DNA of 64,000 nucleotides from an uncultured Bacilli bacterium (GCA_934086315.1 CAKOHZ010000002.1:168464-232463); one strand, 5' to 3'. Positions 5,112 through 51,561 are shown, numbered from the stretch's first letter. Notes: generated by a model from the sequence alone, not told the origin. Made by a program: numbers and translations.

Positions 5112-5732
5112 TTATAGAACTTCGGGTTGCAAAATATTTGTGAAAAAATCATAATACATTTTATATGATTTTTTGCCATCTTTATATTTAAATACTACAC
5201 TATAGTAATCAGTTTCTTTTACATAAGGATAAATATCCACTCCAAATTTACCTTTATATACTAATTCATTAACCTTATCAGATGTAATACCTATTCTTCT
5301 CACTTCTACTTCATCAATAACTATATTTTTCTTTTTAAAGTATTTAGTTTCACGATTACAAGTATCACTAATAAATTTATTTTTATAACACTTATACACT
5401 TCAAGATTTAATATTAAACTATTAGTATTTTCTGTATCTATAAGTACATATCTATCATTAGTATATTTATTATTTTTATCATACGTTGAAAAACTAAATC
5501 CATCTTTACTAACTTTAAGAATGCCTGGTATTAAATTATATATTCTATTTATATCAGTCTGCCCATGAATAGTTTCATCATTAAGAGTTACTTTAAAATA
5601 TAAATCTTGCTTTTCTCTTAAACTTGAATCTATAACTATAACACCATTTTTAATTCTATTAATTACTATTCCTAAAACAAAAATTACAATTATAATTATC
5701 AAAATTTTTTTATTAAATTTCTTCGTCATCAC
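5112..5732 (-). CDS. Membrane-anchored hypothetical protein, tandem paralog of 5713..6378.
   Basis: N-terminal TM helix. It shares the motif VYKCY...C(N/D)R(E/N)T(K/V)(Y/T) with its neighbour. Confidence 0.4.
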   Translation of the reverse strand: MMTKKFNKKILIIIIVIFVLGIVINRIKNGVIVIDSSLREKQDLYFKVTLNDETIHGQTDINRIYNLIPGILKVSKDGFSFSTYDKNNKYTNDRYVLIDTENTNSLILNLEVYKCYKNKFISDTCNRETKYFKKKNIVIDEVEVRRIGITSDKVNELVYKGKFGVDIYPYVKETDYYSVVFKYKDGKKSYKMYYDFFTNILQPEVL

Positions 5733-6378
5733 TTACCTCTAAATAAAACCATACAGTAGTTCTAGTAAACCATTTTTTATTATATATAGTTATTGTATAT
5801 TTTCCTTTTTCATTTATATACTCACCTATGTCACTTATAAGTTTTCCATCATATAAAACTTCATCTTCAGGATATAACTCTTTAACAATCTTAATTTTGT
5901 TTTTTACATCTACTTCTTCATATGTAACAGTATTACGATCACATTCCTCATTAACAGGTACACCAGCATAATTACTATAGCATTTATAAACTATAACTTT
6001 TAATTTACTATTATTATTTGTCTTTAATTTTATTACTTCTTCACTACCAACAGCATCTGAACTACCATCAACAATGTTAATCAAGAAAGGTACTAAAGGA
6101 AAACTAAAATCTTTACTAATTATATGTCCAACTTTTATAGAATCATCTATAAAAATATTATATCTTTCTTTTAATTCTATACTTTTTATATGAAATAATC
6201 TAAATCCAAATAAATCAGGATTCTCTCCTGGTAAAACACCTATAATGGTTTGAAAAGTTATCGCAAGAAATAAATATATTATTAAAATAAAAAGTACTTT
6301 TTTGTTTCTTTTTTTTATGTCTTCCTCTAAAGATTTATTTAATTCTTTTAGAGCTTCTTTTTGTGCTTTCTCATCCAT
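5713..6378 (-). CDS. Membrane-anchored hypothetical protein, tandem paralog of 5112..5732.
   Basis: Cytoplasmic charged N-terminus, one TM helix and a shared Cys-containing motif. It overlaps the neighbour by 20 nt. Confidence 0.4.
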   Translation of the reverse strand: MDEKAQKEALKELNKSLEEDIKKRNKKVLFILIIYLFLAITFQTIIGVLPGENPDLFGFRLFHIKSIELKERYNIFIDDSIKVGHIISKDFSFPLVPFLINIVDGSSDAVGSEEVIKLKTNNNSKLKVIVYKCYSNYAGVPVNEECDRNTVTYEEVDVKNKIKIVKELYPEDEVLYDGKLISDIGEYINEKGKYTITIYNKKWFTRTTVWFYLEVSDDEEI

Positions 6379-6436
6379 AATCTTCCTACCTTAAATTAAT
6401 TTTATCATAAAAAAAAGATTATTGAATATCAATAAT

Positions 6437-7732
6437 CTAAAATTTCATATTTTTCATTTGTTTCATCATTTGTTTCATTTGATCAAATTGTTTTAGTAAA
6501 CGATTTACGTCTTCTACTTTTTGTCCACAACCTTTAGCTATTCTTACTTTTCTATCAGCTTTAATTATTTCTGGATTACGTCTTTCTTCCGGTGTCATTG
6601 AAAGAACTATAGCTTCAGTTCTAGCCATTATTTTAGGATCTATATTTACTTTATTAAGTCCCATTTTAGATGCTCCTGGAAGTAACTTTAATAAGTTTTC
6701 AAGTGGACCTAACTTCTTAATTTGTTTAGTTGTTTTTAAGAAATCTTCAAGATCAAATTTACCTCTTTGCATTTTTTTAGCAGTACTCATCATTTCATCT
6801 TGATCAAGTTCAGCTTCAGTCTTCTCTATTATTGAAAGTAAGTCTCCCATACCAAGAATTCTATCAGCTATACGTTCAGGATAAAATTCACTTATACCAT
6901 CTAATTTTTCAGAGTCTCCAATTAATTTAATTGGTATATTAGTAAGATGTCTAAGTGATAAAGCAACACCACCTTTAGTGTCTCCATCCATCTTAGTAAG
7001 AACACAACCAGTAAGTTTAAGTTTCTCATTAAATCCAGTAATTACATTAATAGCATCTTGTCCCATCATAGCATCTATTACAAGTAACTCTTCATTTGGT
7101 TTAACTTCGCTTTCTATATTAACAAGTTCATCCATTAACTCTTCATCTATTTGAAGACGTCCAGCTGTATCTATTAATATATAATCGTATCCTTTACTTT
7201 TAGCATACTCTATACCACGTTTAGATATTTCAACAGGATTTTCTTTTCCTTCTTCATAAACTTCTATATTAAGTTGTTTTCCAATATCTTTAAGTTGATC
7301 TATCGCAGCAGGTCTATAAACATCACATGCGATAAACATAGGTTTCTTATGATGTTTCTTACGTACCATATTACCTATCTTACCTATAGTAGTAGTTTTA
7401 CCTCCACCTTGAAGACCAACAACCATAACTATAGTTGGATTCTTATTTACTTCTAAAGGAGCACTATCTCCTCCAAGAAGATTAACAAGTTCATCTTTTA
7501 AGATCTTAACAAACATATCTCCTGGTTTAATACTTTTTCTTACTTCTTCACCAAGAGCTTTCTCTTTAACACTATCTATAAATTCACGAACTATTTTAAC
7601 ATTAACATCAGCTTCTAATAAACAAAGTCTAATCTCACGAGTTATATCACTAATATTATCTTCATTTATTACACCTTTAGATTTAATATTACTAACTACT
7701 TTTTGTAATCTTTCACTCAAGTTTTCAAACAT
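6437..7732 (-). CDS. ffh: Signal recognition particle protein Ffh (SRP54 GTPase).
   Basis: N domain, G domain (GLQGGGKTTT P-loop, DTAGR, TKMDGD) and Met-rich M domain (QMKQMMKQMKNM). It is not followed by rpsP as in most Firmicutes. Confidence 0.92.
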   Translation of the reverse strand: MFENLSERLQKVVSNIKSKGVINEDNISDITREIRLCLLEADVNVKIVREFIDSVKEKALGEEVRKSIKPGDMFVKILKDELVNLLGGDSAPLEVNKNPTIVMVVGLQGGGKTTTIGKIGNMVRKKHHKKPMFIACDVYRPAAIDQLKDIGKQLNIEVYEEGKENPVEISKRGIEYAKSKGYDYILIDTAGRLQIDEELMDELVNIESEVKPNEELLVIDAMMGQDAINVITGFNEKLKLTGCVLTKMDGDTKGGVALSLRHLTNIPIKLIGDSEKLDGISEFYPERIADRILGMGDLLSIIEKTEAELDQDEMMSTAKKMQRGKFDLEDFLKTTKQIKKLGPLENLLKLLPGASKMGLNKVNIDPKIMARTEAIVLSMTPEERRNPEIIKADRKVRIAKGCGQKVEDVNRLLKQFDQMKQMMKQMKNMKF

Positions 7733-7806
7733 AAAATCTATCCTCCTGTATAAATATTATAACAAACATTACAATCTTTATAAAGAAAAATGTGCATTTA
7801 AGCACA

Positions 7807-9090
7807 CTATTTATTTCTTTTTATAATATCATTTCTATTTTCAATAAGTTTAATAATATTATCAATTTCTTCATTACTGCTTTTATCATTAAGTTTACTT
7901 ATTAATGAACTAATATTCTCTTCAATGTCTTTTATTATTTCATTACTAACTGGATCAGAGTATTTAAGTTTATCAATTAATTTATTTTTATATTCACTAT
8001 TTAATTTTGATATATTATTAATTTTGAATATCATTTCATCAATAAATTTAGTTTTATTTTTTGTATTAGTATCTAGTTCCATACTTCTCTTGTTAACAGT
8101 TATTAAAGTAAAGCATGCGATAATGAACATTATATCTACAATAACTGAATACATTAAAACATTATTACTTGACATATGACTAACATTATTAAATTTGTAT
8201 ATAACAATATAAATAATTATCAAATAAGCAAATGTTGCGATGTATAAAGGAGTACTAGTAAACTTTTCATTATCTGTTTTATCTTTAACAACAATAATTG
8301 CAATTGCTGTTAATACAAATGATATTATACTTGAGATTAGACAAGCTGTATAATTATCTTTTTCATTAATTGTTGCTGTAAATTTAGTAAACATATTTAT
8401 ACTTGTAACAGTATCAGGAATATAAATATTATTTAGTGATGGAATTATATCAAAGTTAACAGCTGTTACTTTCATACCATTAACAGTTGTTGGAATAATT
8501 ATGTTACTATCATTACCTGTGTATTTTACTATTTCAATCTTGTCATTTTTAACATTATATTCAAATGGAAATTCAATATAATTAAAATCAACAGTATCTG
8601 AATCATTTAATATATTAACATTTAGTTCATTATTATTTTTAAGTTCTTCACAATATTTACCTTTATAACAATTAATAGTAATATTTTTAAAATTCTTTAC
8701 TGGTAAATAGTTTATGTTATCTGAAATATATATATTTTTAACTTTATCATTTTTAAATGAATCACTTATTGATGCTATTTTAGTACCTTCATAATCATAT
8801 GGAATAACTAATGTTTCACTTATTCCTTTATATTCTGTTATTTCTAATGTATCATTAACTTTGTTATATGAAAAGCTTTCTATATTTTTTATATATTTAT
8901 CTTTTTCACTATCAGCTATTTTTTCACAGCTAACTCCATTAACTCCACTAGCATCAACATATCCAGTAACGTAATTATTATTATTATATTTAAATTTTAA
9001 ATTATATGATGGCTTTGTTTTAGTAAGTGAGAATATTAGACTTAATGTTATTACAAATGAAATTGCTATAAAAATTATTTTTTTCTTCAT
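7807..9090 (-). CDS. Membrane protein with an extracellular BspA-type leucine-rich-repeat domain (LRR_5-like), 3-4 TM helices and a cytoplasmic coiled-coil tail. It is the last gene of the TIR operon.
   Basis: LRR_5-like blocks read IEITEYKGISETLVIPYDYEGTKIASISDSF, IYISDNINYLPVKNFKNITIN and IEIVKYTGNDSNIIIPTTVNGMKVTAVNF. The track 'M1' is a GTG. ATG at 9090 sits 1 nt after the upstream stop, with AGGTGA 5 nt before it. Confidence 0.55.
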   Translation of the reverse strand: MKKKIIFIAISFVITLSLIFSLTKTKPSYNLKFKYNNNNYVTGYVDASGVNGVSCEKIADSEKDKYIKNIESFSYNKVNDTLEITEYKGISETLVIPYDYEGTKIASISDSFKNDKVKNIYISDNINYLPVKNFKNITINCYKGKYCEELKNNNELNVNILNDSDTVDFNYIEFPFEYNVKNDKIEIVKYTGNDSNIIIPTTVNGMKVTAVNFDIIPSLNNIYIPDTVTSINMFTKFTATINEKDNYTACLISSIISFVLTAIAIIVVKDKTDNEKFTSTPLYIATFAYLIIIYIVIYKFNNVSHMSSNNVLMYSVIVDIMFIIACFTLITVNKRSMELDTNTKNKTKFIDEMIFKINNISKLNSEYKNKLIDKLKYSDPVSNEIIKDIEENISSLISKLNDKSSNEEIDNIIKLIENRNDIIKRNK

Positions 9091-9091
9091 A

Positions 9092-10237
9092 TTACTCACC
9101 TACTTTCTTACCACAATATGGACAAAATGCTGCATCATTTGGTAACTTTTTACCACAACTACTACACACACTACCAGTCATATTATTACCACATTTAATA
9201 CAAAATTTAGTACCACTAACATTTTCATATCCACAATTACTGCATACTGTAGAATTATCATTTTTAGTAAAAGCGCCAACCACATTTTTATTAACTGTAT
9301 CACTTACTTTTGATGAAACACTACTCATAACGCCAAGTCCTACTCCCATATTAGTAAATTGACCAACTGCATTATTAGAAGCCATTTTATCAAGAACATT
9401 ATATTGTCTTTCATCTTGATAACTATATCCTTCAGTTTCTCTTTTATGAGCTTTAGCTTCACTATCAATCTTTGTACTCTTAGCTTTAGTTTCTTCATCA
9501 ATTAATGTTACTTTTTGTCTTAATTGAGCTTCTGCTACTGCGACACTCTGTTTAAAATATAATTCTTTAAATTCAAGATATTGTTTATCATCTTCAGGTT
9601 TCATAACAGTAGTTACAAAGAATTTTTCAAGTTCAATACCAAACTCTTCAAAGTCGCTAGCAAGTAAATTTTTAAGTTCTTCACTAAACTCATTTAAATG
9701 ACTATCAATTTCAAATATACTTATTTCATTTTTATTAATAATTTTAGCAATATAAGATTTAACTTTAACAAGTATAAATGAACTAAAGAATTCATCAATA
9801 TTTTCCCCGTCAAAATTATCTTTAATACCAACTAATTTTAATAATAGTTTTCTTGAATCAACTACTTTAAATCTCATTTCTCCACAAGCACCTATTTGTA
9901 TAGGAAACTTATATGTTGGTTCTAAAAATTCAATTTTACTACTAGTACCCCATCTTGATGATTTAATAGACTTATCTATAAAGTATACTTCACAATGAAA
10001 TGGACTTTTACCACCTGTAGGTAAATTAATTAAATTTTTAAGTAGTGGTATGTTATTTGTTTCAAGTGTATATCTTCCTGAACCAAATAAATCTAATGCC
10101 TTTCCATCCTTATAAAGTATAGCTTCCTGTGATTCATGTACAATTAGTTGACTACTTGTATTAAAATCAGTTTTAGGATACTTCCACACAATATTTTCAT
10201 CATCTTTCTCTTTCTTTATTATTTCAAATAAAGCCAT
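9092..10237 (-). CDS. SPFH/band-7 domain protein with C-terminal double zinc ribbon (B. subtilis YdjI-like, Band_7_1 family).
   Basis: The N-terminal region (FEIIKKEKDDENIVWKYPK...SQLIVHESQEAILYKDGK...) resembles YdjI. The C-terminus carries CSNCG...CIKCG...CSSCG...CPYCG, four CxxC pairs. ATG at 10237 has an AGGTGA RBS, and the track start 10246 is a GTG. Confidence 0.65.
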   Translation of the reverse strand: MALFEIIKKEKDDENIVWKYPKTDFNTSSQLIVHESQEAILYKDGKALDLFGSGRYTLETNNIPLLKNLINLPTGGKSPFHCEVYFIDKSIKSSRWGTSSKIEFLEPTYKFPIQIGACGEMRFKVVDSRKLLLKLVGIKDNFDGENIDEFFSSFILVKVKSYIAKIINKNEISIFEIDSHLNEFSEELKNLLASDFEEFGIELEKFFVTTVMKPEDDKQYLEFKELYFKQSVAVAEAQLRQKVTLIDEETKAKSTKIDSEAKAHKRETEGYSYQDERQYNVLDKMASNNAVGQFTNMGVGLGVMSSVSSKVSDTVNKNVVGAFTKNDNSTVCSNCGYENVSGTKFCIKCGNNMTGSVCSSCGKKLPNDAAFCPYCGKKVGE

Positions 10238-10261
10238 AATATTCACCTTTCCTTTTCTATA

Positions 10262-12076
10262 TTATTCTTTCTCTAATACTTCAACATAATCTTTATTATC
10301 AAATTTACCACATATCCAACCATTAACTTCAAAACTTGTTTCTATATTATACCATATTTCACATAATCCATTTGAATCCTTTCTACTATCAAGAACATCA
10401 TATATTTCATCTTTTCTAACAATTCCTTTTGCATAATAATAAACATCATCATTACCTCTTATATTAATATGATCAACAATTACTTTAATTTGATCTATTG
10501 ATGTATCTCTATCATTTGATTGATTGGGAAGTGGTGAAGTATTTATAATAACACTAATAATTCCTATTATAATTGGTAATATGTAGAAGAATATATTTAA
10601 TATTTTTTTATCTTTTGGTATATAGTTTTCAGTAAACTCTTTATTGTTTTTTAATATTTCTTCTTTTTCTTCTTTAGTAACAACAAGTGGTACTTCTTTA
10701 ATTCCCCAAGAAGGCTTCATAAATAATAGTGCAATATTAAGTAAGATTATAATATATGTAACAAATGTAGCTGTATTACCAAAGTTATGAAGTTTTAAAA
10801 TAAATAATAATTCTAAAAACACATTAACTATATACATATATTTAGATATTTTATTTGATTTTCTACTAGCAAATCCTAGAAAAAATGCAATCGCAGTAAT
10901 TATACTAACTAATAATTGATATGAATAAAAATTTTTACCTTCACTAATTAAACTATAATTTTCCCCAAGATAATTATAATAACAATATCCACCATTTAAA
11001 AGAAGCATGCATCCTGCCATCAAAGCCGATAACACAAATGTAATTATTATATATGGAGTTGAACACTTATCTCTTTTTTCCAAAACATCATATCTTTTAG
11101 ATAATTCTTCTTGTTTTTCTCTTTCTTCTTCAAGCATCATTTGTTTGAATTTTTGATACATATCACTATCAATATCAGTAGATTTCTTATTAATGATTTT
11201 TCCTACTGCTGTAACTAAATCTTGCATAGAACCAACTTTATCTATACATAGTGCTTGTAACATTGAAAACTCTTCTGGTAATTCATAAGCATCCATCTTA
11301 CTATAAACTGGAATCAATACTTTTTTCTTTTTATTTTTTATTAAGTCTAAATATCTACTCCATTCATTTTTAACCCATACTGAATTTAAATTATCAGCAT
11401 TAGTACCTACTACTAACATAACCTTTGAACTATTAAGTGCTGAAAAGATATATGGTTCATATTCTTCACCAAGTTTATCAGCAAGAGTAATTCTAGCAAA
11501 GAAAACTTTATAATTTAAATCAGTTAATTTATTATATATATCTTGAGCAATAACACTATCAGGAGTTCTATCTCCATTTTTATCTCCTTCTTTATAACAA
11601 ATAAAGATATCATAATCTTCTTCATTATTAGAAATTTCAAGTGCTTTCTTTTGAATATTACTAATAGTTTTTGCTTCTTCTTTATATATTTTTAAAGCAT
11701 CTCCATAAGCCTTACTAATTATTATTTTATAATCAGAATCAGTTAAAACAGATTCATACTTTGTTCTATGACAAGTAATCATTTTCTTTTTAGTTTTTGG
11801 ATCATCTACATATTCAACACCATATCTACAAAGTATTAGTCCCCAATGAGCTTCTAACTGATTTTCATCTATTTCAAGTATAGTCTCATATACACCATAT
11901 GCTTTATCAAATTCATTTGATAGTCTTAAATTATTTGCCCTATTATATAAATTTAAAAGTTTTTCATTATCAACACTTGGTAGAGTCATAGTGCTTTTGC
12001 AATATAAACATTTACCTATATTAGTACCTTCAACTACTTCTATATCTCCACCACACATCTTACATTTAAAGACCAT
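10262..12076 (-). CDS. TIR-domain membrane protein with N-terminal zinc ribbon, helical hairpin, cytoplasmic TIR domain, five TM helices and an extracytoplasmic SH3b-like C-terminal domain.
   Basis: TIR motifs are DYDIFICYKEGDKNGDRTPDSVIAQDIYNKL, KVFFARITLADKLGEEYEPYIFSALNSSKVMLVVGTNADNLNSVWVKNEWSRYL. N-terminal CKMCGG...CLYCKS is a zinc ribbon. Five hydrophobic helices precede ...DHINIRGNDDVYYYAKGIVRKDEIYDVL...NGWICGKF, which is SH3b-like. GGAGG sits 8 nt upstream of ATG at 12076. Confidence 0.65.
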   Translation of the reverse strand: MVFKCKMCGGDIEVVEGTNIGKCLYCKSTMTLPSVDNEKLLNLYNRANNLRLSNEFDKAYGVYETILEIDENQLEAHWGLILCRYGVEYVDDPKTKKKMITCHRTKYESVLTDSDYKIIISKAYGDALKIYKEEAKTISNIQKKALEISNNEEDYDIFICYKEGDKNGDRTPDSVIAQDIYNKLTDLNYKVFFARITLADKLGEEYEPYIFSALNSSKVMLVVGTNADNLNSVWVKNEWSRYLDLIKNKKKKVLIPVYSKMDAYELPEEFSMLQALCIDKVGSMQDLVTAVGKIINKKSTDIDSDMYQKFKQMMLEEEREKQEELSKRYDVLEKRDKCSTPYIIITFVLSALMAGCMLLLNGGYCYYNYLGENYSLISEGKNFYSYQLLVSIITAIAFFLGFASRKSNKISKYMYIVNVFLELLFILKLHNFGNTATFVTYIIILLNIALLFMKPSWGIKEVPLVVTKEEKEEILKNNKEFTENYIPKDKKILNIFFYILPIIIGIISVIINTSPLPNQSNDRDTSIDQIKVIVDHINIRGNDDVYYYAKGIVRKDEIYDVLDSRKDSNGLCEIWYNIETSFEVNGWICGKFDNKDYVEVLEKE

Positions 12077-12131
12077 TGTTACTGCCTCCATACTAAACAT
12101 ATTTTACCATAGATGCATTTATACTTCAATT

Positions 12132-21626: not shown

Positions 21627-23252
21627 TTATCCTACTATATATGGACTATCACTAGTTCCATCTCCAGTAACCTTAGCAGTTCCTGAGATTGAAATTACAG
21701 GTATAACTCCTACACCACTAGTAGTATCATCAAGGAAAGTACTAGATAAAGCACCAGTATCTGTTATATACCATATATAACCATGTTTATTATTTGAGTT
21801 TGGTGAATAGAAATCAAATGGTGACATAGTCCATGAATATTCTTTACTATATAAGAAATTAGTTTTATTATCTTCTTCTGTCAATCCAGCATATGCAGCC
21901 TCTTCAGCAGTTAATAATGCAATTGGATAAGTAAGTTTATTATTACCAAATAATTTTTTACCGCCATTATCTAGTGATAAAGTAAATTTATCATTTGTTT
22001 GAATACATTTATATTGAGGATTTGCGTTTTCAGAACTATAATCAGCATATATTCTACGAGATGTACCATAAAAATAGTTATTATAACCATATGCTTTGTT
22101 AGAATATGATGTACCACCAGCATTAATCGCACCACCACCACTTCTATCATTACAATAGATTGTATTTGCAACTAAAGCTTTTACATCATCACCCTTACTT
22201 AGAATATTATTAACATACCAATTATCTAAAACTGTTTTAATTGTACTATTATATTTATTACTATGAGCTGTCGCATATGAAGTACTATATCCAGTATTAT
22301 TTAAACCATTCATATATCCTACATATGAGTTATCATTACCAACTCTATTATAAACTGTAGTTCCAAGTCTAACAGAAGTACCTGTAGTAGAACATTTACC
22401 ATCTTGATAAGTTCCATTATATCTCAATTTTAAAGAACCATCTTCATTAGTTCTAATAACCTTCCAACAATAATCAGCAAAAACTAAATAATTGTTTGTA
22501 ACATTACCTCTATAAAAATATACTCTTTTACCATCCTCAGTTTTACTAATATCTGTTGTAAAATATAATCCTTTACCATTGGTATCACTTGATATTTCAC
22601 CAAAATTAATTCCAGTTTCACTAGTTACGTATGCACTACTAACATTATCTGCATATGGTTCTTCACTAGCAACCATTTTACATCTAATATCTTCACTACT
22701 ACTATTACATAAAGCAAACCATGGTTTATCTTCTTGTACGCCAAGAACACCACTGAATATTTTTCCTTGATTATAATCTTGAGGTTCAGTTGAATCTTCA
22801 AATGTAATAGTTATTGTATACTTATGAGTAACACCAACTTCTAAGAATATTTCATCTTTAACAGGTTCACCATTAATTACTCTCTGAGTTATATTTCCAC
22901 AAGTACCATTTTCGTTTCCATCCTTATCTATTCTAGTACAAGTTCCCGCTATTAACATTTCATCATTAATTATTTCATTAGTTAATTCTTGCCATATAAT
23001 TTTATAATAAACATCAAAAGTACCAACGTTTTGAACAGATAATTCTTTAGTAATTGTATCTCCAGGTTTAGCACCATTAAGAACAATTTCCGGAGAATCA
23101 GTATATATTAATTTAAGTGTTCCTGTTTCAACAACATTATCCTTTACTTCATTATTATCAAACGCAGCTTTAAAATATGCGTATGAAAAGCCTAAACTAG
23201 CTAAAAGAAGAAAAACAATTCCAATACCAAATATAATTTTTTTATCTTTCAT
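21627..23252 (-). CDS. Secreted protein with a TasA/camelysin-like N-terminal domain and SipW-cognate-type signal peptide, fused to a large Gly/Asn/Tyr-rich C-terminal domain.
   Basis: N-terminus reads MKDKKIIFGIGIVFLLLASLGFSYAYF|KAAFD...ETGTLKLIY...KPGDTITKELSVQNVGTFDV, which is TasA-like. The C-terminus ends YSWTMSP...GYIWYITDTGALS...GVGVIPVISI, shared with its neighbour. Confidence 0.55.
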   Translation of the reverse strand: MKDKKIIFGIGIVFLLLASLGFSYAYFKAAFDNNEVKDNVVETGTLKLIYTDSPEIVLNGAKPGDTITKELSVQNVGTFDVYYKIIWQELTNEIINDEMLIAGTCTRIDKDGNENGTCGNITQRVINGEPVKDEIFLEVGVTHKYTITITFEDSTEPQDYNQGKIFSGVLGVQEDKPWFALCNSSSEDIRCKMVASEEPYADNVSSAYVTSETGINFGEISSDTNGKGLYFTTDISKTEDGKRVYFYRGNVTNNYLVFADYCWKVIRTNEDGSLKLRYNGTYQDGKCSTTGTSVRLGTTVYNRVGNDNSYVGYMNGLNNTGYSTSYATAHSNKYNSTIKTVLDNWYVNNILSKGDDVKALVANTIYCNDRSGGGAINAGGTSYSNKAYGYNNYFYGTSRRIYADYSSENANPQYKCIQTNDKFTLSLDNGGKKLFGNNKLTYPIALLTAEEAAYAGLTEEDNKTNFLYSKEYSWTMSPFDFYSPNSNNKHGYIWYITDTGALSSTFLDDTTSGVGVIPVISISGTAKVTGDGTSDSPYIVG

Positions 23253-23272
23253 TGCTCATTACTCCTTTCGCT

Positions 23273-24496
23273 TTATCCTATTCTAAATGCAGGTGAAACA
23301 CCATAAGCATTATTAGCATCTCCAGCATTACCCCAACTACCTGAATCTGTTGCAAAGAAGAAACTACTAACATTATTAGAATAGCCAGTTCTAAACCACC
23401 AATATTCACTAGAAGTTCCTAACTTCTTTATAGCACCATCAGAATTATCAGCAGTTACGCCTAAGTTTTTATAATAATCTAATTGTCTTGTTAATTCATT
23501 GGCTGTGTCATAACTATAAGACCAACCACCATAAATTTCTCCAGGAGCTAATAAATATAATTTATCAGTAGAAGTAAAATTACTACTATCAGCTGCTCCT
23601 CTACCAGATACGCTAAATGTATCAATTATCCCATTTTTTATCACAGCAGGCATTGCATTATAAATATCATTATTTAAATATGTATACATTGAAGATGCTG
23701 GCCAACCACCAACAGTAGTAGCAGTACTATTCATATTATAAGTACTAATAATATCAGCAAATTCTATAACAAAACCACATGCAGTTTGTGAAAATCCATC
23801 ATTGCCACATTCTTCAGAAGTAGTATTATTAGCAACTCTAACTGTGTGTGTTCCAAAATTTCCTAATTCAATACTTTTAGTATCACCAACATTATATTCA
23901 CTACCTAATCCTGATTTTACAATATCAATAATATCTACCCAACTATCAGTAGCAAAATTAGGTTTAGTATATTCAGATACACCCAATACACCATTAAATT
24001 TCTTACCCTGATTATAATTTTGATCAGCATCTATGTTCTTAAAAGTAATTTTGATACTATACTTATGTGCAATATTAGGCTCAATATCTATTTTTCTCTT
24101 AAGAGCACCACCTGTTATAGCAGTAACATCAATGCCACTACAAGTACCACTTTCTTCATTAGTAGTATTATCTATTCTAATACAACTTGCCTCAATAACC
24201 ATTTCATCATTTTCTATTTCATTTGTTAATTCTTGCCAAACTAAATTATAGCTAGCATTCAAAGTTCCAGTATTTTTAATATTAATTTCTTTAGTTAAGC
24301 TATCACCCGGTTTCATATTTTCAAGTACTACTTGAGGTCCATCAACATAAGTTAATTCTAAAGTACCTGTTGAAACAACTTGATCCTTTACATCTTGATT
24401 TGTAATGTTATTACTAAAGTAAGCATAAGAAAAACCTACGCTAGCTAAAAAAACAAATGCTAATCCAATCCAAGCTAACATTCTTTTATTGTTCAT
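23273..24496 (-). CDS. Secreted protein with a TasA/camelysin-like N-terminal domain and SipW-cognate-type signal peptide, fused to a C-terminal WW(F/L)R(S/T)-GVSPAFR domain. It is a tandem paralog of 21627..23252.
   Basis: N-terminus reads ...MLAWIGLAFVFLASVGFSYAYFSNN...STGTLELTY...KPGDSLTKEINIKNTGTLNA. The C-terminus reads SEYWWFRTGYSNNVSSFFFATDSGSWGNAGDANNAYGVSPAFRIG. Start chosen at ATG 24496, preceded by GGAGGA. The track start is a TTG further upstream. Confidence 0.5.
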   Translation of the reverse strand: MNNKRMLAWIGLAFVFLASVGFSYAYFSNNITNQDVKDQVVSTGTLELTYVDGPQVVLENMKPGDSLTKEINIKNTGTLNASYNLVWQELTNEIENDEMVIEASCIRIDNTTNEESGTCSGIDVTAITGGALKRKIDIEPNIAHKYSIKITFKNIDADQNYNQGKKFNGVLGVSEYTKPNFATDSWVDIIDIVKSGLGSEYNVGDTKSIELGNFGTHTVRVANNTTSEECGNDGFSQTACGFVIEFADIISTYNMNSTATTVGGWPASSMYTYLNNDIYNAMPAVIKNGIIDTFSVSGRGAADSSNFTSTDKLYLLAPGEIYGGWSYSYDTANELTRQLDYYKNLGVTADNSDGAIKKLGTSSEYWWFRTGYSNNVSSFFFATDSGSWGNAGDANNAYGVSPAFRIG

Positions 24497-24590
24497 ATAA
24501 TAATCATCCTCCATCAATTATCTACCTATATTACAATTACATTATACATAGTTTTTACAAAAGTGTAAATGGTAAATAGTCAATTTTCAC

Positions 24591-46397: not shown

Positions 46398-46484
46398 ACA
46401 TCTTCTCCTATAATAAATTATAACATTAATCGTTAAAAACAAAAAGAAAAAATTTAACAAAATAAAAGATACTTACGTATCTAT

Positions 46485-48251
46485 TTATTTAACAGTGAAT
46501 TTTAATGTATCAGGTATGCCAGTTAAACTACTATCATTAAATTTATCTGCTATAACTTGATCTTTAGCATATCCAACTGTAGCTTGAACATCGCCAAACA
46601 TGCTGTCTACATTTGAAACATTGCTAATATCAAAACTACTTAAATCAAGGCTTGTCGCCTTACTATTTGCAAACATCCATCTCATATCAGTTACATTACT
46701 TGTATTAAAACTACTCAAATCTAGTGAAGTAGCAGCAGCCCCATTAAACATAAACCCCATATTAGTTACTTTACTTGTATCAAAATTTTTTAAATCTAAT
46801 GACACTAATTTTGAATTTTGGAACATATTACTCATATTAGTTACATTTGAAGTATTAAACTTATCTAAACCTTTTATAACCGTAGCCCCAGAATCTCCAA
46901 ACATAATTGACATAGTTGTTACTTTACTTGTATCAAAACTACTTAAATCAAGCGTAGCAGCAGAACTATTATAAAACATATTACTCATATTTGTAACTTT
47001 ACTTGTATTAAAACTGCTTAAATTTATAGTTTCTGCTTGACTATTGGCAAACATACTATACATATTAGTAACATTACTAGTATCAAAATTTCTAAGATCT
47101 AAACTCTTAATATTTGTAGAGTGAAACATATAACTCATCGTAGTTACTTTAGATGTGTTAAAATTACTAACATTCAACTCTTTTATTTTTGTATAACTAA
47201 ACATACCATTCATCGCAGTAACATTGCTTGTATTAAATTTGCTAACATCTATAGAATCAACAGATGAACGTAAAAACATATAAGCCATATTAGTAACCTT
47301 ACTAGTATCAAAACTACTTAAATCAAGTGTAGATACAGAACTTTCATAAAACATTCCGCCCATATTAGTTACATTTCTAGTATCAAAATTATTTAAACCA
47401 ACTATTGTTGTAGCTTTAGAGCTTTCAAACATTATACCCATATTATTTACTTTACTTGTATTGAAATTACTTACATCTAATGTTTGAAATTGACTATAAG
47501 AAAACATAGCATTCATATCAACAACATTACTTGTATTGAGACTAGTCAAATCAACACTTTTTGCATTAGCTTTATAAAACATTGATCTAGTTGAAACCAA
47601 TGGCTTTCCATTTATATACGTACACACCTTACTAGTAACAGGTTCTGTACTATCTTTATCAGTTAATGTAACGCCCCAACCTTCAGATGATATATTTCGC
47701 CATTCAATATAAGCTGAATTATTAGCGTTTTCAGCAGATTGCATATATCTATAAGTATATTGGCCATTTACATACTCTGCACCTTGTTTTAATTCTCCAT
47801 CAAATGTACAATTCAATGGTTCTGGAATTGTTGGCGTATTATTACTACAATTATATTCATCTAAATTTCCATCAGTTAAATCATCTGTTGTTAAATCTTC
47901 TATTTGCTTATTTCCATCTAAACTCGCAATCCATTGTCCATTAGAGACTTTCATACTTTTAACATTGCCACTATTATCTAAAATAATGCAGTACTGTAAC
48001 TTTTTACCAGTCATATCTAGTTTAGATTCATCTTCAGAGTTTATTACTTTTACTGGAGATCCACTAATTGAAGAAGTTACAAACTTTTTACCAGCCTCTG
48101 TATATATTTTCTTTGCTTCTGTTATAAATGTTTGTTTTCTAGCTTGATTATATGTATTAATAATATTTGGTAATGCTAGAATTACCAAGATTGCTAGAAT
48201 TGCTATAACGGCTAATAATTCTATTAATGTAAACCCTTTTTTATTTTTCAT
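46485..48251 (-). CDS. Type IV pilin-like protein with a prepilin leader, fused to a large C-terminal DUF285/BspA-like leucine-rich repeat domain.
   Basis: Start at ATG 48251 (AGGTGA RBS) gives MKNKKG|FTLIELLAVIAILAILVILALP, a class III signal with G-1, F+1 and E+5. The C-terminal half has about 13 tandem 22-aa repeats of the form (L/V)DLSSF(D/N)TS(K/N)VT(N/T)M..MF. Confidence 0.65.
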   Translation of the reverse strand: MKNKKGFTLIELLAVIAILAILVILALPNIINTYNQARKQTFITEAKKIYTEAGKKFVTSSISGSPVKVINSEDESKLDMTGKKLQYCIILDNSGNVKSMKVSNGQWIASLDGNKQIEDLTTDDLTDGNLDEYNCSNNTPTIPEPLNCTFDGELKQGAEYVNGQYTYRYMQSAENANNSAYIEWRNISSEGWGVTLTDKDSTEPVTSKVCTYINGKPLVSTRSMFYKANAKSVDLTSLNTSNVVDMNAMFSYSQFQTLDVSNFNTSKVNNMGIMFESSKATTIVGLNNFDTRNVTNMGGMFYESSVSTLDLSSFDTSKVTNMAYMFLRSSVDSIDVSKFNTSNVTAMNGMFSYTKIKELNVSNFNTSKVTTMSYMFHSTNIKSLDLRNFDTSNVTNMYSMFANSQAETINLSSFNTSKVTNMSNMFYNSSAATLDLSSFDTSKVTTMSIMFGDSGATVIKGLDKFNTSNVTNMSNMFQNSKLVSLDLKNFDTSKVTNMGFMFNGAAATSLDLSSFNTSNVTDMRWMFANSKATSLDLSSFDISNVSNVDSMFGDVQATVGYAKDQVIADKFNDSSLTGIPDTLKFTVK

Positions 48252-48260
48252 ACACTTCAC
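47930..48260 (-). repeat. Segmental duplication, 5' part of pilin-like gene 1 (partner 49520..49850).
   Basis: By eye there are long near-identical stretches, for example ...cagtactgtaactttttaccagtcatat... against ...cagtattgtaactttctccctgtcatat..., and gtttgttttctagcttgatta is shared exactly. Confidence 0.6.
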
Positions 48261-48285
48261 CTATTCTAATTATAACATAATAATT

Positions 48286-48318
48286 TTCAGATTCAATTAA
48301 AAAGGTATTGATTACTCA
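48286..48318 (-). terminator. Rho-independent terminator between the two pilin-like genes.
   Basis: aaaggtattga/tcaataccttt (11 bp stem), followed on the minus strand by TTTTTAATTG. Confidence 0.5.
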
Positions 48319-48329
48319 ATACCTTTACT

Positions 48330-49841
48330 TTATTGTTTTAATGTGAAATATCCAGGATTTGAAGTTCCTCCATCTATACGTGCATAAGATGCATCTACAT
48401 TATTACTATCATACACTGTACCTGCACCACCTACTAATTTTGTAGAATTGTAAAATACATAGTTTTTGCGTTCTTCTTCATTAAGACTACTCGTAACAAA
48501 CTTATTACTAACATAGATAGTTGTAAGATTATCATTACCTACAAACATAGCACCCATGCCTGTTACCTTACTAGTATCAAAACTACTTAAATCTATAATT
48601 TTAAGCTTTGTGCCACGAAACATGTTTGTCATATTAGTAACATTAGATGTATTAAATTTGTCTAATCCAGTTATTGTAGTAAGATTACTAGCAAAGAACA
48701 TACCAGACATGCTTGTTACTTTTGAAGTATCAAATGCACTTAAATCTAAAGTGGTTACATTAGTGCCTGAAAACATTGCACCCATGTCAGTCACATTTGT
48801 TGTTTTGAATTTATTTAAACCTGTAATTATTGTTGCTTTGCTTCCATTAAACATTTCACTCATATTTGTTACTCTACTTGTATTCAAATTACTTACATCT
48901 ATTGTTGTTGCGTTTGTCCCCATAAACATTGCTTGCATGTTTGTAACTTTACTTGTATCAAAACCACTTAAATCTATTGATGCTAATGAACTACCTAAAA
49001 ACATTGCAAGCATATTAGTAACTTTACTTGTATTCAAATTACTTATATTTAAATTATTTCCCTTAGTACCACTAAATGTAAATTCCATATTTGTGACATT
49101 ACTTGTATTAGAATTACTTAAATCAATACTTGATGCATTACTTTTGCTAAATGCATAACTCATAGAAACAACTGGTTTATTATTTATTGTTGTACACAAA
49201 ACACTAGTTACTGCATCTGTACTATCTTTATCAGTAAGTTTTACTCCCCAACCATCAGTAGATATATTAACCCATTCTAGAGGTTTGATTGTAAATTTAT
49301 CAGTTAAATCATCTTGTTCTTGCATATACCTATAAGTATATTGTCCATTTACATACTCTGCACCTTGAATAAGCTCTCCATCAAATGTACAATTTAATGG
49401 TTTTGGAGTATTAGACTGTTGTCCTCCATTATTAGTACAATTATAACCATCAAGATTTCCTTCTTCTAAATCATCAATAGTTAAATCTTCAACAGCTTTA
49501 CCATCAACTAAACTTGCAACCCACTCACCATTAGAAACTTTCATACTTGTTACATTACCACCATTATCTAATATAATACAGTATTGTAACTTTCTCCCTG
49601 TCATATTTAATTTAGAATCATCTTCCGAATTAATGACTTTTACTGGTTTACCACTAATTGAAGAAGATACAAATTTTTTCCCAGCTTCTGTATAAATCTT
49701 TTTTGCCTCTGTTACAAATGTTTGTTTTCTAGCTTGATTAAACATATTAATTACATTTGGTAACGCTAGAATTACCAAAATTGCTAATATTGCTATTACT
49801 GCTAATAACTCTACTAACGTAAAACCATTTCTATTTCTCAT
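48330..49841 (-). CDS. Type IV pilin-like protein with a prepilin leader, fused to a DUF285/BspA-like repeat domain (tandem paralog).
   Basis: MRNRNG|FTLVELLAVIAILAILVILALP. The N-terminal roughly 210 aa are about 85-90% identical at nucleotide level to the neighbour, and the repeats (I/L)DLS.(F/L)(D/N)TS(K/R)VT(N/S)M follow. Confidence 0.65.
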   Translation of the reverse strand: MRNRNGFTLVELLAVIAILAILVILALPNVINMFNQARKQTFVTEAKKIYTEAGKKFVSSSISGKPVKVINSEDDSKLNMTGRKLQYCIILDNGGNVTSMKVSNGEWVASLVDGKAVEDLTIDDLEEGNLDGYNCTNNGGQQSNTPKPLNCTFDGELIQGAEYVNGQYTYRYMQEQDDLTDKFTIKPLEWVNISTDGWGVKLTDKDSTDAVTSVLCTTINNKPVVSMSYAFSKSNASSIDLSNSNTSNVTNMEFTFSGTKGNNLNISNLNTSKVTNMLAMFLGSSLASIDLSGFDTSKVTNMQAMFMGTNATTIDVSNLNTSRVTNMSEMFNGSKATIITGLNKFKTTNVTDMGAMFSGTNVTTLDLSAFDTSKVTSMSGMFFASNLTTITGLDKFNTSNVTNMTNMFRGTKLKIIDLSSFDTSKVTGMGAMFVGNDNLTTIYVSNKFVTSSLNEEERKNYVFYNSTKLVGGAGTVYDSNNVDASYARIDGGTSNPGYFTLKQ

Positions 49842-49850
49842 ACACTTCAC
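49520..49850 (-). repeat. Segmental duplication, 5' part of pilin-like gene 2 (partner 47930..48260).
   Basis: See the partner entry. The shared leader and RBS (tacacttcacctatt) are also duplicated. Confidence 0.6.
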
Positions 49851-49941
49851 CTATTGTAATTATAGCATATATAAAATGTAAGTAAATAAATAAAATTTGA
49901 TTAATAATTAAAAATGATTTATAATGTTTTTGGTGAAGATG

Positions 49942-50590: not shown

Positions 50591-51223
50591 TTATGCACAA
50601 ATATTGGATTTCATTCTACTTAGTATTAACTTTTCTTGTCTTGATACTTTTACTTGACTAACACCTAAAGCATCTGCTGTTTCACTTTGAGTATATCCTT
50701 GATAATATCTATATTCTATTAGATTTCTATCAAAATCATCCATAGAAGAAAGTTCATTTTCTAAAAGTATTTTATTATCAATCTCCTCTCTCTTGTCATT
50801 TCCATAATCATAATCACTTTCATCTGTACTCTTAGTAAATGATATAGTTTCAATTACATTACGAAGTACTCCTTCATCTATTTCCATAAACGAACATATT
50901 TCACTAAATGAAGGTTCTCTTTCTAATTTACTAGTAAGTAATGATCTAATACTTAAATATTTTTTATATAATGACATATATTCTTCACTAACTTTAATAT
51001 TTCTATCACATCTTATAAATTCAATAATCTCACCTAATATATATTTATAAGCATAAGTACTAAATTTAACAGATGTATCTTTCTTATAGTTTTTATATGC
51101 TTTTATTACTCCAATAGAACCCACTTGATATAAATCTTCGATACTATAATAAATAGAATATTTACTAGCTATTTTATATATAAGTCCCTCACTTTCTTTA
51201 ATTAGAGTTAAATACTCACTCAT
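50591..51223 (-). CDS. Sigma-70 family sigma factor of the SigF/SigG/SigB group.
   Basis: Region 2 DLYQVGSIGVIKAYKNYK...KFSTYAYKYILGEIIEFIR and region 4 HTH QSETADALGVSQVKVSRQEKLILSRMK are present. ATG overlaps the stop of the STAS gene (ATGA). Confidence 0.75.
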   Translation of the reverse strand: MSEYLTLIKESEGLIYKIASKYSIYYSIEDLYQVGSIGVIKAYKNYKKDTSVKFSTYAYKYILGEIIEFIRCDRNIKVSEEYMSLYKKYLSIRSLLTSKLEREPSFSEICSFMEIDEGVLRNVIETISFTKSTDESDYDYGNDKREEIDNKILLENELSSMDDFDRNLIEYRYYQGYTQSETADALGVSQVKVSRQEKLILSRMKSNICA

Positions 51224-51561
51224 ATACTAAATACCCCAGTACTATATTTTTCATCACGAGACTTAAAGCAATAATCAAATAAATCACTATTCTTTAAAGT
51301 TAATTTAATTTTATCATTAATGCCACTTATAACTACCTTCCCATCATACCTACTAACAACATTAGAAATTTTGATTATAGAATCTATTCCACTTTTATCA
51401 ACAAACTTAACACTTGATAAATCAATATTTATTTTATCAAGTGACATTCCAAGTATTAAAGGAATAACTCTACTTTCAAATACTCTTGAAGTGTTATCAT
51501 AAAAACTACCATTTAATCTAACAAATAAAATCCCTTTTTTGAACTCAATATTTGTTGTCAT
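51220..51561 (-). CDS. STAS-domain anti-sigma-factor antagonist (SpoIIAA/RsbV-like).
   Basis: 113 aa. The pattern ...LFVRLNGSF......IDLSSVKFVDKSGIDSIIKI is STAS fold, with the phosphorylatable Ser in the DKSG context. Confidence 0.65.
   Translation of the reverse strand: MTTNIEFKKGILFVRLNGSFYDNTSRVFESRVIPLILGMSLDKINIDLSSVKFVDKSGIDSIIKISNVVSRYDGKVVISGINDKIKLTLKNSDLFDYCFKSRDEKYSTGVFSI

Follow-up and report, generated by a model that had tools for sequence, protein, structure and literature searches.

Organization of the gene pair

A window of 64,000 nucleotides from an uncultured Bacilli bacterium (GCA_934086315.1, CAKOHZ010000002.1:168464-232463), the whole of which was analysed here, contains two tandem genes that each join a type IV prepilin-like N-terminus to an array of leucine-rich repeats (LRRs). 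The window has a GC content of about 26%, and nearly all of its genes, including these two, are on the minus strand; coordinates are those of the window, and features are on the minus strand (-) unless another strand is given. The upstream gene (48330-49841) codes for a 503-aa protein composed, in order, of a leader, a pilin module, a linker, a beta-rich cap, eight PARCEL/DUF285 repeats and a C-terminal tail (assigned from its open reading frame (ORF), Pfam, NCBIfam and an AlphaFold model). The downstream gene (46485-48251) codes for a 588-aa paralogue with 13 PARCEL repeats (assigned from its ORF, Pfam and TIGR02167). We consider it probable that the two are paralogous modular type IV pilins, in which a pilin carrier is joined to an adhesin-like LRR cargo, and they belong to a carrier family that is specific to uncultured, low-GC, small-genome Bacilli of the gut and rumen.

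ORF calling in the window gives GTG-extended frames for both genes (46485-48260 and 48330-49850), which an earlier interpretation made without database searches (the sequence-only reading) had trimmed to internal ATG codons, with products of 503 and 588 aa. Both the starts and the sizes hold. The trimming is justified because each ATG (49841 and 48251) is 5 nt downstream of a ribosome binding site (RBS), AGGTGA, at 49852-49847 and 48262-48257, with the GTG lying inside that site in both genes; because independent gene calls on six public contigs pick the identical ATGs, giving 503 and 588 aa; and because nearly all homologues start with M-x(3-5)-G-F-T-L. The true start is therefore not upstream. 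About 20 nt farther upstream both genes have an extended -10 box (TGnTATAAT), within the promoter-like sites TTTACT, 16 nt, TG-n-TATAAT for the upstream gene (49859-49886; 10/12 in the promoter scan with the TG, a consensus match only) and TTGAAT, 16 nt, TG-n-TATAAT for the downstream gene (48269-48296; promoter scan and sequence). The proposal that each gene has its own terminator stands for the upstream gene, which is followed by a strong hairpin and T-run at 48301-48326 (terminator scan; RNA fold -12.8 kcal/mol, z -4.78), and is weaker for the downstream gene, where a terminator-like hairpin (AGATAC-GTAA-GTATCT) and T-run at 46455-46482 (RNA fold -6.1 kcal/mol, z -2.5) is not reported by the terminator scan.

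Identical copies of the upstream-gene protein are present on 12 public gut-metagenome contigs and exact copies of the downstream-gene protein on three, and both recur on contigs of several human cohorts, identical or nearly so even where the divergence of the flanks reaches 3%. Next to the pair is a divergent gene, and just upstream of that gene are two others that overlap by 4 nt (50591-51561), one for a 113-aa STAS-domain protein and one for a sigma-70-family factor of 210 aa, with no anti-sigma kinase between the two.

The pilin module

Both proteins begin with what the sequence-only reading had called a textbook class III (prepilin peptidase) signal, and this is borne out. The N-termini are MRNRNG/FTLVELLAVIAIL for the upstream gene and MKNKKG/FTLIELLAVIAIL for the downstream gene, the slash marking the predicted prepilin-peptidase cut after Gly6, and the six-residue leaders (aa 1-6) are at 49824-49841 and 48234-48251, respectively. 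There are several supporting features. First, a short basic leader with Gly at -1, Phe at +1, Glu at +5 and about 20 hydrophobic residues are all present in MRNRNG/FTLVELLAVIAILAILVILALP and MKNKKG/FTLIELLAVIAILAILVILALP. Second, the Pfam N_methyl model (PF07963) scores 31.7 bits for the 503-aa protein and 34.0 bits for the 588-aa protein (cut-off 21.2), and the NCBIfam model TIGR02532 (IV_pilin_GFxxxE) scores 26.5 and 29.7 bits (cut-off 16.3). Third, a six-frame scan of the 64 kb finds the motif G-F-T-L-[IV]-E in these two genes and nowhere else. Finally, alignments of 19, 34 and 74 relatives show little or no variation at Gly6, Phe7, Glu11 and the hydrophobic stretch, a pattern that would be unexpected in a plain membrane anchor. 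Assignment to the Com pseudopilins was considered and rejected, since the scores of the two proteins fall below the cut-offs for ComGE (34.7 and 29.9 versus 49 bits), ComGC (30.4 and 27.2 versus 75 bits) and ComGD (29.9 and 27.4 versus 70 bits), and the matches are limited to the N-terminal helix.

The pilin module itself comprises aa 7-136 of the upstream gene (49434-49823) and aa 7-136 of the downstream gene (47844-48233), the two modules being 79% identical in amino acids, with 81% nucleotide identity over nt 1-420 of the genes. In an AlphaFold model of the full 503-aa chain that draws on 34 homologues (mean predicted local distance difference test score (pLDDT) 86.1, predicted template modelling score 0.70), the upstream module consists of an alpha-1 helix of 54 residues (9-62) and four beta strands (69-71, 86-91, 97-103 and 107-112), with cysteines at positions 88 and 135. 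When the first 141 residues are modelled separately the topology is unchanged (pLDDT 85.4). As modelled, the topology of residues 7-136 is consistent with a pilin fold, in which an alpha-1 of about 53 residues packs against an antiparallel sheet, and a profile search of the PDB with the module retrieves type IV pilins only, by way of alpha-1. Exactly two cysteines are present in the pilin modules of 112 of 116 close homologues and 49 of the 74 reference-genome members; the second keeps its place near residue 135, while the first is at position 88, 108 or 69/70. This pattern fits a disulfide, and thus folding outside the cytoplasm, and a Cys88-Cys135 bond probably staples the end of the module.

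The leucine-rich repeat cargo

The carrier and cargo meet at a short linker, TNNGGQQSNTP (aa 137-147; 49401-49433), which has pLDDT values below 50 at residues 137-143 and is the point at which homologues change to other cargos. In the upstream gene it is followed by a beta-rich cap (aa 148-237; 49131-49400) with the signature NCTFDG...GQYTYRY...GWGV...C216, modelled as strands with pLDDT 90-98 and conserved among family members of the DUF285 type. The repeats come next. The upstream gene has eight of them (aa 238-441; 48519-49130) and the downstream gene 13 (aa 232-560; 46572-47558), each of 25-26 aa, as determined from the repeat register, Tandem Repeats Finder, which gives a period of 75 nt in both arrays, and TIGR02167. 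The upstream gene ends in a C-terminal tail (aa 442-503; 48333-48518; ...GGAGTVYD...NPGYFTLKQ; pLDDT 53-88) that pairwise alignment does not find in the downstream gene.

That the C-terminal halves are DUF285 arrays, as predicted, is well supported. Pfam DUF285 (PF03382) scores 199.9 bits for the 503-aa protein and 239.3 bits for the 588-aa protein (cut-off 25), and NCBIfam TIGR02167 (PARCEL) scores 143.8 bits over seven stretches and 270.7 bits over 12 stretches (cut-off 30). The details require revision, as the repeats had been described as 22-residue units in 10-13 copies per gene. The N_methyl and DUF285 matches that had been anticipated were thus obtained and the LRR_5 match was not: neither protein matches LRR_5 (PF13306, the BspA type) at E<=0.01, and for this reason the label 'BspA-like' holds only loosely. 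In the AlphaFold model residues 238-441 form a solenoid to which each repeat contributes one short strand (pLDDT >90), and the order of pilin module, linker, cap and LRR solenoid supports the two-module view of the sequence-only reading, a pilin joined to an adhesin-like repeat domain.

Two ORFs run antisense to the repeats, at 46600-46974 (+) and 48556-49158 (+), with lengths of 124 and 200 aa. They carry a repeat of their own, VTLLVSKLLKS, in keeping with the dyad symmetry reported for the DNA that encodes PARCEL repeats (PMC2996958), and they are probably not genes.

Duplication and strain variation

The first 210 or so codons of the two genes had been described as near-identical at the DNA level. 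They are not: nucleotide identity between the genes is 83-85% over nt 1-300, falls to about 73-74% over 300-540 and to about 56% over 540-660, and upstream of both genes only about 35 nt, comprising the -10 box and RBS, are conserved. The nearest reference relative, MGYG-HGUT-04102, shares synteny and 79-92% nucleotide identity with the window and has one gene, of 417 aa (L011 10001-11251), at the site of the tandem pair (46485-49841), which argues that the tandem duplication is specific to the present lineage. The claim of a recent duplication is overstated at an identity of 81-85% at best; from these comparisons the duplication does seem to be lineage-specific, though not very recent.

In a strain from a Hadza gut (L002), repeats 1-4 of the downstream gene (window 47000-47999) differ by 43 nt and 18 aa, while the rest of the pair is nearly identical. 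To judge from its sequence, this patch looks like recombination or gene conversion. A selective sweep at the pair was also considered, and was rejected because a 500-nt sliding comparison of strains shows a mosaic of identical and divergent stretches across the whole region, so that the conservation of the pair is no special signal. Another assembly of the species has the downstream gene in truncated form (P0001, 275 aa, on a contig of 274 kb), with an almost identical N-terminus; a premature stop or phase variation could account for it.

The carrier family and its cargos

Searching with the N-terminal 225 residues at E<=1e-3 identifies 2601 proteins, almost all of them of gut-metagenome origin. 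An exhaustive search with the 141-residue module against 1.84 billion representatives gives 7449 matches at E<=1e-3, 818 at E<=1e-10 and 31 at E<=1e-30; among 140 representatives that were new relative to the earlier searches, the class III motif is present in 135 and the length is at least 250 aa in 93. A scan of reference genomes yields at least 393 confirmed carrier-family loci in metagenome-assembled genomes (MAGs) labelled Bacilli, Mollicutes, Mycoplasmatota, Tenericutes, Erysipelotrichaceae or, as a label or mislabel, Clostridium, from human gut, rumen, rabbit and chicken. MGYG-HGUT-04102 alone has at least eight carrier loci with at least 13 complete genes. The arrangement had been thought rare and is not, as indicated by these copy numbers in the nearest reference genome, the 818 clusters, and the approximately 22 N_methyl-DUF285 proteins already present in the compilation of Raynaud et al. 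2021.

The carrier module ends at the second cysteine, and differing cargos follow. The cargos were surveyed by Pfam in 74 members from the reference genomes plus the window (loci L010-L089, alignment A5). DUF285 is the cargo in 23 of the 74, DUF6273 in 11, LRR_5 in five (P0047 is another LRR_5 match in the carrier family), PT-HINT in three, intein-splicing domains in three and dockerins in two, with Gly_rich_2, beta-helix, PMP and GLUG in one each; at least 23 of the 74 have no recognised cargo. The joining of one carrier at the same point to many cargos argues for modularity. The three pretoxin-HINT/intein-splicing members and the two with dockerins hint that this one carrier may also serve to deliver toxins and to attach proteins in a cellulosome-like manner.

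Several candidates were set aside. P0380, a protein of 2581 aa with 16 weak matches to residues 80-125, was discarded as an unrelated repeat protein. The short, seemingly pilin-only matches P0035 and P0088 proved to be fragmented fusions and not major pilins in operons, and the 'conserved pilin' of TANB77 (PMC11680825) belongs to a Tad-type pilus in Clostridia that is unrelated to the carrier family.

Dispersed assembly genes

Genes for type IV pilus (T4P) assembly are found beside carrier-family members in related genomes. In a Hadza gut MAG (L041), a PilB-type ATPase gene (T2SSE, 415 bits) is divergent from a gene for a 173-aa pilin, and carrier-family members lie 2-3 kb from pilB on both sides. 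This arrangement, proS-pilin<>pilB-pbp-lexA, is conserved in three related genomes (L041 at 6117-8272, L059 at about 5516-7267, and L092-L095), and its pilin is always small (149-173 aa). The L059 locus is in the rumen MAG RUG840, which is syntenic with parts of the window (L057 and L068), and its PilB is 72% identical to that of L041. At a separate locus (L018), genes for PilC (T2SSF, 169 bits) and PilD (A24_N_bact 99 bits, Peptidase_A24 47 bits) lie 3' of lepA and 3 kb from a carrier-family member. Homologues of the L041 PilB and L018 PilC are very numerous in MAGs labelled 'Bacilli bacterium'. The T4P genes of this clade are thus dispersed and do not form one operon, and from these sequences it is plausible that the machinery for the window pair is encoded in trans.

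Directly after pilD, the L018 locus codes for an 886-aa protein (8970-11630) with a signal-anchor and no NCBIfam match, the C-terminal part of which resembles, by eye, a 541-aa TasA-like protein of the window.

A putative second carrier and other loci

This 541-aa protein is one of two, of 541 and 414 aa, encoded in tandem at 21627-24517 (-). The N-terminal modules of both resemble TasA/camelysin (PF12389, E 2e-8 and 1.6e-11), with BsaA/TasA NCBIfam matches below the curated cut-offs. The DUF6273 domain of the 414-aa gene (23273-24517) and the cargo of a pilin-carried protein, P0032, share 62% identity over 231 aa. In addition, a locus of the same species (L090 20031-21110; ERZ28615073 scaffold_34) joins a TasA-like N-terminus to the NCTFDG...GQYTYRY cap and PARCEL repeats; it is 50% identical over 189 aa to the cap and repeats of the upstream pilin gene, and the junction is at the same NCTFDG. 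Judged by these similarities, the same DUF285 and DUF6273 cargo cassettes are carried in this species on both pilin and TasA-like carriers, and this is the more novel point to emerge from the analysis.

Loss of sortases has been reported for the related orders RFN20 and ML615J-28 (PMC10868615). Together with the shared cargos, this suggests that surface display, a task that would otherwise fall to sortases, may here be provided by the pilin and TasA-like carriers. We tentatively raise the broader possibility, somewhat doubtful at present, that in this clade of small-genome gut Bacilli the pilin and TasA-like modules are interchangeable carriers for a shared cargo pool, and that the T4P machinery is the principal route by which each genome displays at least a dozen large proteins on the surface, and not the builder of one pilus with a few minor pilins. 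Such a pool may include DUF285, DUF6273, BspA LRRs, pretoxin-HINT, dockerins and flagellin D0/D1-like segments, with the window pair as one node. If the sharing of cargos between the two carriers is general, it would represent domain shuffling between two unrelated filament systems.

Two further sets of genes are noted. At L090 1-4732 there are three tandem genes of about 630 aa each that combine a pilin module with two flagellin D0/D1-like segments (PF00669), and a similar fusion is present at L098 2869-4737; their flagellin NCBIfam scores reach 117 bits, below the cut-offs, and no flagellar genes have been seen so far. In the window, 9092-12100 (-) codes for a 612-aa protein with N-terminal zinc-ribbon-like CxxC pairs and a TIR-type-like stretch (YDIFICYKEGD...), followed by a 384-aa protein that ends in zinc-ribbon motifs. 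By eye, these could be a defence-type pair.

Proposed display of the pair and alternative explanations

If the two proteins are modular pilins, each gene would be transcribed from its own promoter, for which the consensus sites described above are candidates, and the product would enter the membrane by its hydrophobic alpha-1 N-terminal segment. A PilD-type prepilin peptidase would then cut after Gly6 and methylate Phe7, as suggested by the G/F/E motif and the presence of PilD in relatives. The pilin module of about 130 residues, modelled as alpha-1 with a four-strand sheet and a probable Cys88-Cys135 disulfide, would act as the carrier, and the PilB/PilC machinery would presumably take up the protein together with a small major pilin of 164-173 aa. 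The short flexible linker would hold out the modelled, capped solenoid of eight or 13 repeats, and by analogy with LRR surface proteins the solenoid would most likely bind a ligand on the host, on mucus or on other microbes. Because the cargos are bulky, the expected location is the tip of a filament or short pseudopilus-like stubs. A tandem duplication that is absent in the nearest relative, followed by divergence of the arrays in number and sequence, would have generated two display variants of one type of adhesin.

Several observations weigh against this interpretation. A Foldseek search of the PDB with the pilin module gives no significant match, the best pilin being 5vxx_A with E 1.2 and a template modelling score of 0.28, and the whole 503-aa model gives only weak matches to LRR ectodomains (E 6.7e-3), with no close PDB structure for the DUF285 solenoid. 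Reading of all ORFs of at least 100 aa together with motif scans finds no T4P genes in the 64-kb window, where the sequence-only reading had correctly noted the absence of pilB, pilC, pilD, pilM and comG. Six strains likewise lack them over the 10 kb on either side of the pair, and there are no pil genes around P0032, P0037 and P0040, which are other members from the same species or genus. The machinery expected elsewhere in the genome was found, as PilB, PilC and PilD, beside family members in related genomes, and none of the three was found in the own-species DNA that was read (the 64 kb plus about 40 kb). Moreover, a set of at least 13 scattered monocistronic paralogues with unrelated cargos does not look like the minor-pilin set of a classical pil operon, and a filament tip holds few subunits. 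The processing motif and the domain layout of the pair are shown or modelled, and its cleavage, polymerisation, location and ligand are inferred.

The many scattered monocistronic paralogues per genome, with cargos as different as pretoxin-HINT and dockerin, would also fit a general display or secretion route, in which proteins with a class III signal are processed by PilD and then either remain single membrane-anchored molecules or form short pseudopilus stubs that push the cargo through a thin wall, with no long adhesive filament. Parallels would be the archaeal binding proteins with class III signals or the use of T4P genes in Gram-positive bacteria in a manner like a type II secretion system (T2SS). 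This is the nearest rival, as it shares transcription, membrane insertion and PilD processing with the modular pilin interpretation and differs in the final location only. It accords with the lack of linkage of most family members to pil genes, with the same cargos on a second, unrelated carrier, which suggests that the carriers are display devices, with T4P-associated secretion reported in the Gram-positive Clostridium perfringens (PMC11580942), and with the sortases reported lacking in RFN20 and ML615J-28 (PMC10868615). However, the conserved small pilin beside pilB in relatives suggests a real filament, the carrier as modelled retains a full pilin head and not the signal alone, and PilB of Streptococcus sanguinis is a bulky modular pilin in true pili; we regard display without a filament as unlikely.

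We give much less credence to the idea that both proteins start with a normal Sec signal, or with a signal-anchor that is not cleaved, such that these are conventional membrane-anchored LRR proteins with no link to T4P. It would account for the absence of pil genes nearby and in the own-species DNA read, and PARCEL proteins are known with many types of membrane-targeting N-terminus (PMC2996958). Against it are hidden Markov model scores that exceed curated cut-offs, the invariance over hundreds of diverged relatives of Gly at -1, Phe at +1 and a charged Glu at +5 within a hydrophobic helix, the predicted 54-residue helix followed by a pilin-like sheet, the finding that the true start is not upstream, and the presence of PilD, PilB and PilC in relatives bearing the family; it is highly improbable. 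Least probable of all is that the genes are silent or decaying copies, a stock of PARCEL repeat variants on which recombination can draw. Such a reservoir role has been suggested for PARCEL arrays (PMC2996958), repeats 1-4 of the downstream gene have a recombination-like patch in one strain, and there are fragmented copies in other genomes as well as the truncated 275-aa P0001, but both ORFs here are intact, an extended -10 box and a well-spaced RBS precede each gene, a terminator-like hairpin follows it, and the proteins are identical or nearly so across cohorts though their flanks differ by up to 3%.

On the modular pilin interpretation the pair is a sound and fairly ordinary example of a design that has already been catalogued, is unstudied and is very common in this bacterial group; it does not constitute a new category. 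Modular pilins are a recent idea for the multifunctionality of filaments, and only a handful have been studied. The pair adds a well-defined pilin-PARCEL LRR example from abundant uncultured Bacilli of the human gut, and points to a clade in which the design is expanded to 818 representative clusters, with many cargos and many copies per genome of 1.3-1.5 Mb. If displayed, these proteins are likely to be major determinants of attachment to the host, to mucus and to other microbes, and they are possible antigens.

Comparison with known systems

Raynaud et al. 2021 (PMC8179133) defined modular pilins from S. sanguinis PilB and listed 264 architectures in a set of 1219 InterPro proteins. The window pair falls within that definition, having N_methyl and DUF285 matches and a low-confidence linker (137-143) between confidently modelled domains. 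Dataset S1 of that study includes about 22 proteins of the IPR012902-IPR005046 (N_methyl-DUF285) architecture, with one to nine DUF285 matches and in some cases PF08428, and 29 more of the IPR012902-IPR026906 (BspA LRR) architecture (PMC8179133). The N_methyl-DUF285 entries have exactly the architecture of the window pair, and are given as a catalogue only, with no analysis of proteins, hosts, copy number or machinery. A search of full-text literature for DUF285 together with pilin returned only unrelated work on Lactococcus.

The closest studied counterparts are S. sanguinis PilB (pilin plus vWA) and PilC (pilin plus lectin), which like the pair have an IPR012902 signal and small pilin module, a short loop and a bulky non-T4P domain (PMC8179133, PMC9934059), and which also share a monoderm host and the proposal that they act in adhesion from the tip of a filament. 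The window pair differs in having a PARCEL/DUF285 solenoid of eight or 13 repeats, in being located outside a pil locus and in being known here from sequence and models, and its carrier is a lineage-specific module that is reused on dozens of cargos per clade. CofB of enterotoxigenic Escherichia coli, ComZ of Thermus (with a beta-solenoid) and GspK of the T2SS also combine a pilin module with extra domains and, as proposed for the pair, are thought to be located at the tip (PMC8179133); in contrast to the pair, their extra domains are not recognisable database families, and they are encoded within pilus or secretion operons.

The cargo has its own relatives. Roeske et al. 2010 (PMC2996958) described the PARCEL repeat from lipoproteins of Mycoplasma, where it is combined with several kinds of membrane-targeting N-terminus, and proteins such as LppQ of Mycoplasma mycoides have the same 25-26-residue repeats, surface display, variable copy number and open antisense frame. 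Their anchors, however, are lipobox or transmembrane; a prepilin-type N-terminus is not mentioned, and the word 'pilin' occurs 0 times in PMC2996958. The BspA-type LRR_5 proteins (PF13306) have a surface LRR solenoid that is an alternative cargo on the same carrier, the window proteins having DUF285/PARCEL instead. TasA of Bacillus subtilis and BsaA of C. perfringens (PMC11580942) are SipW-dependent fibre subunits of another fold, with another route of export and assembly; they bear on the genes at 21627-24517 and not on the pilin pair, while a TasA-like carrier in this species, which looks like a second means of display on a polymer, bears the same cargo cassettes as the pilin carrier.

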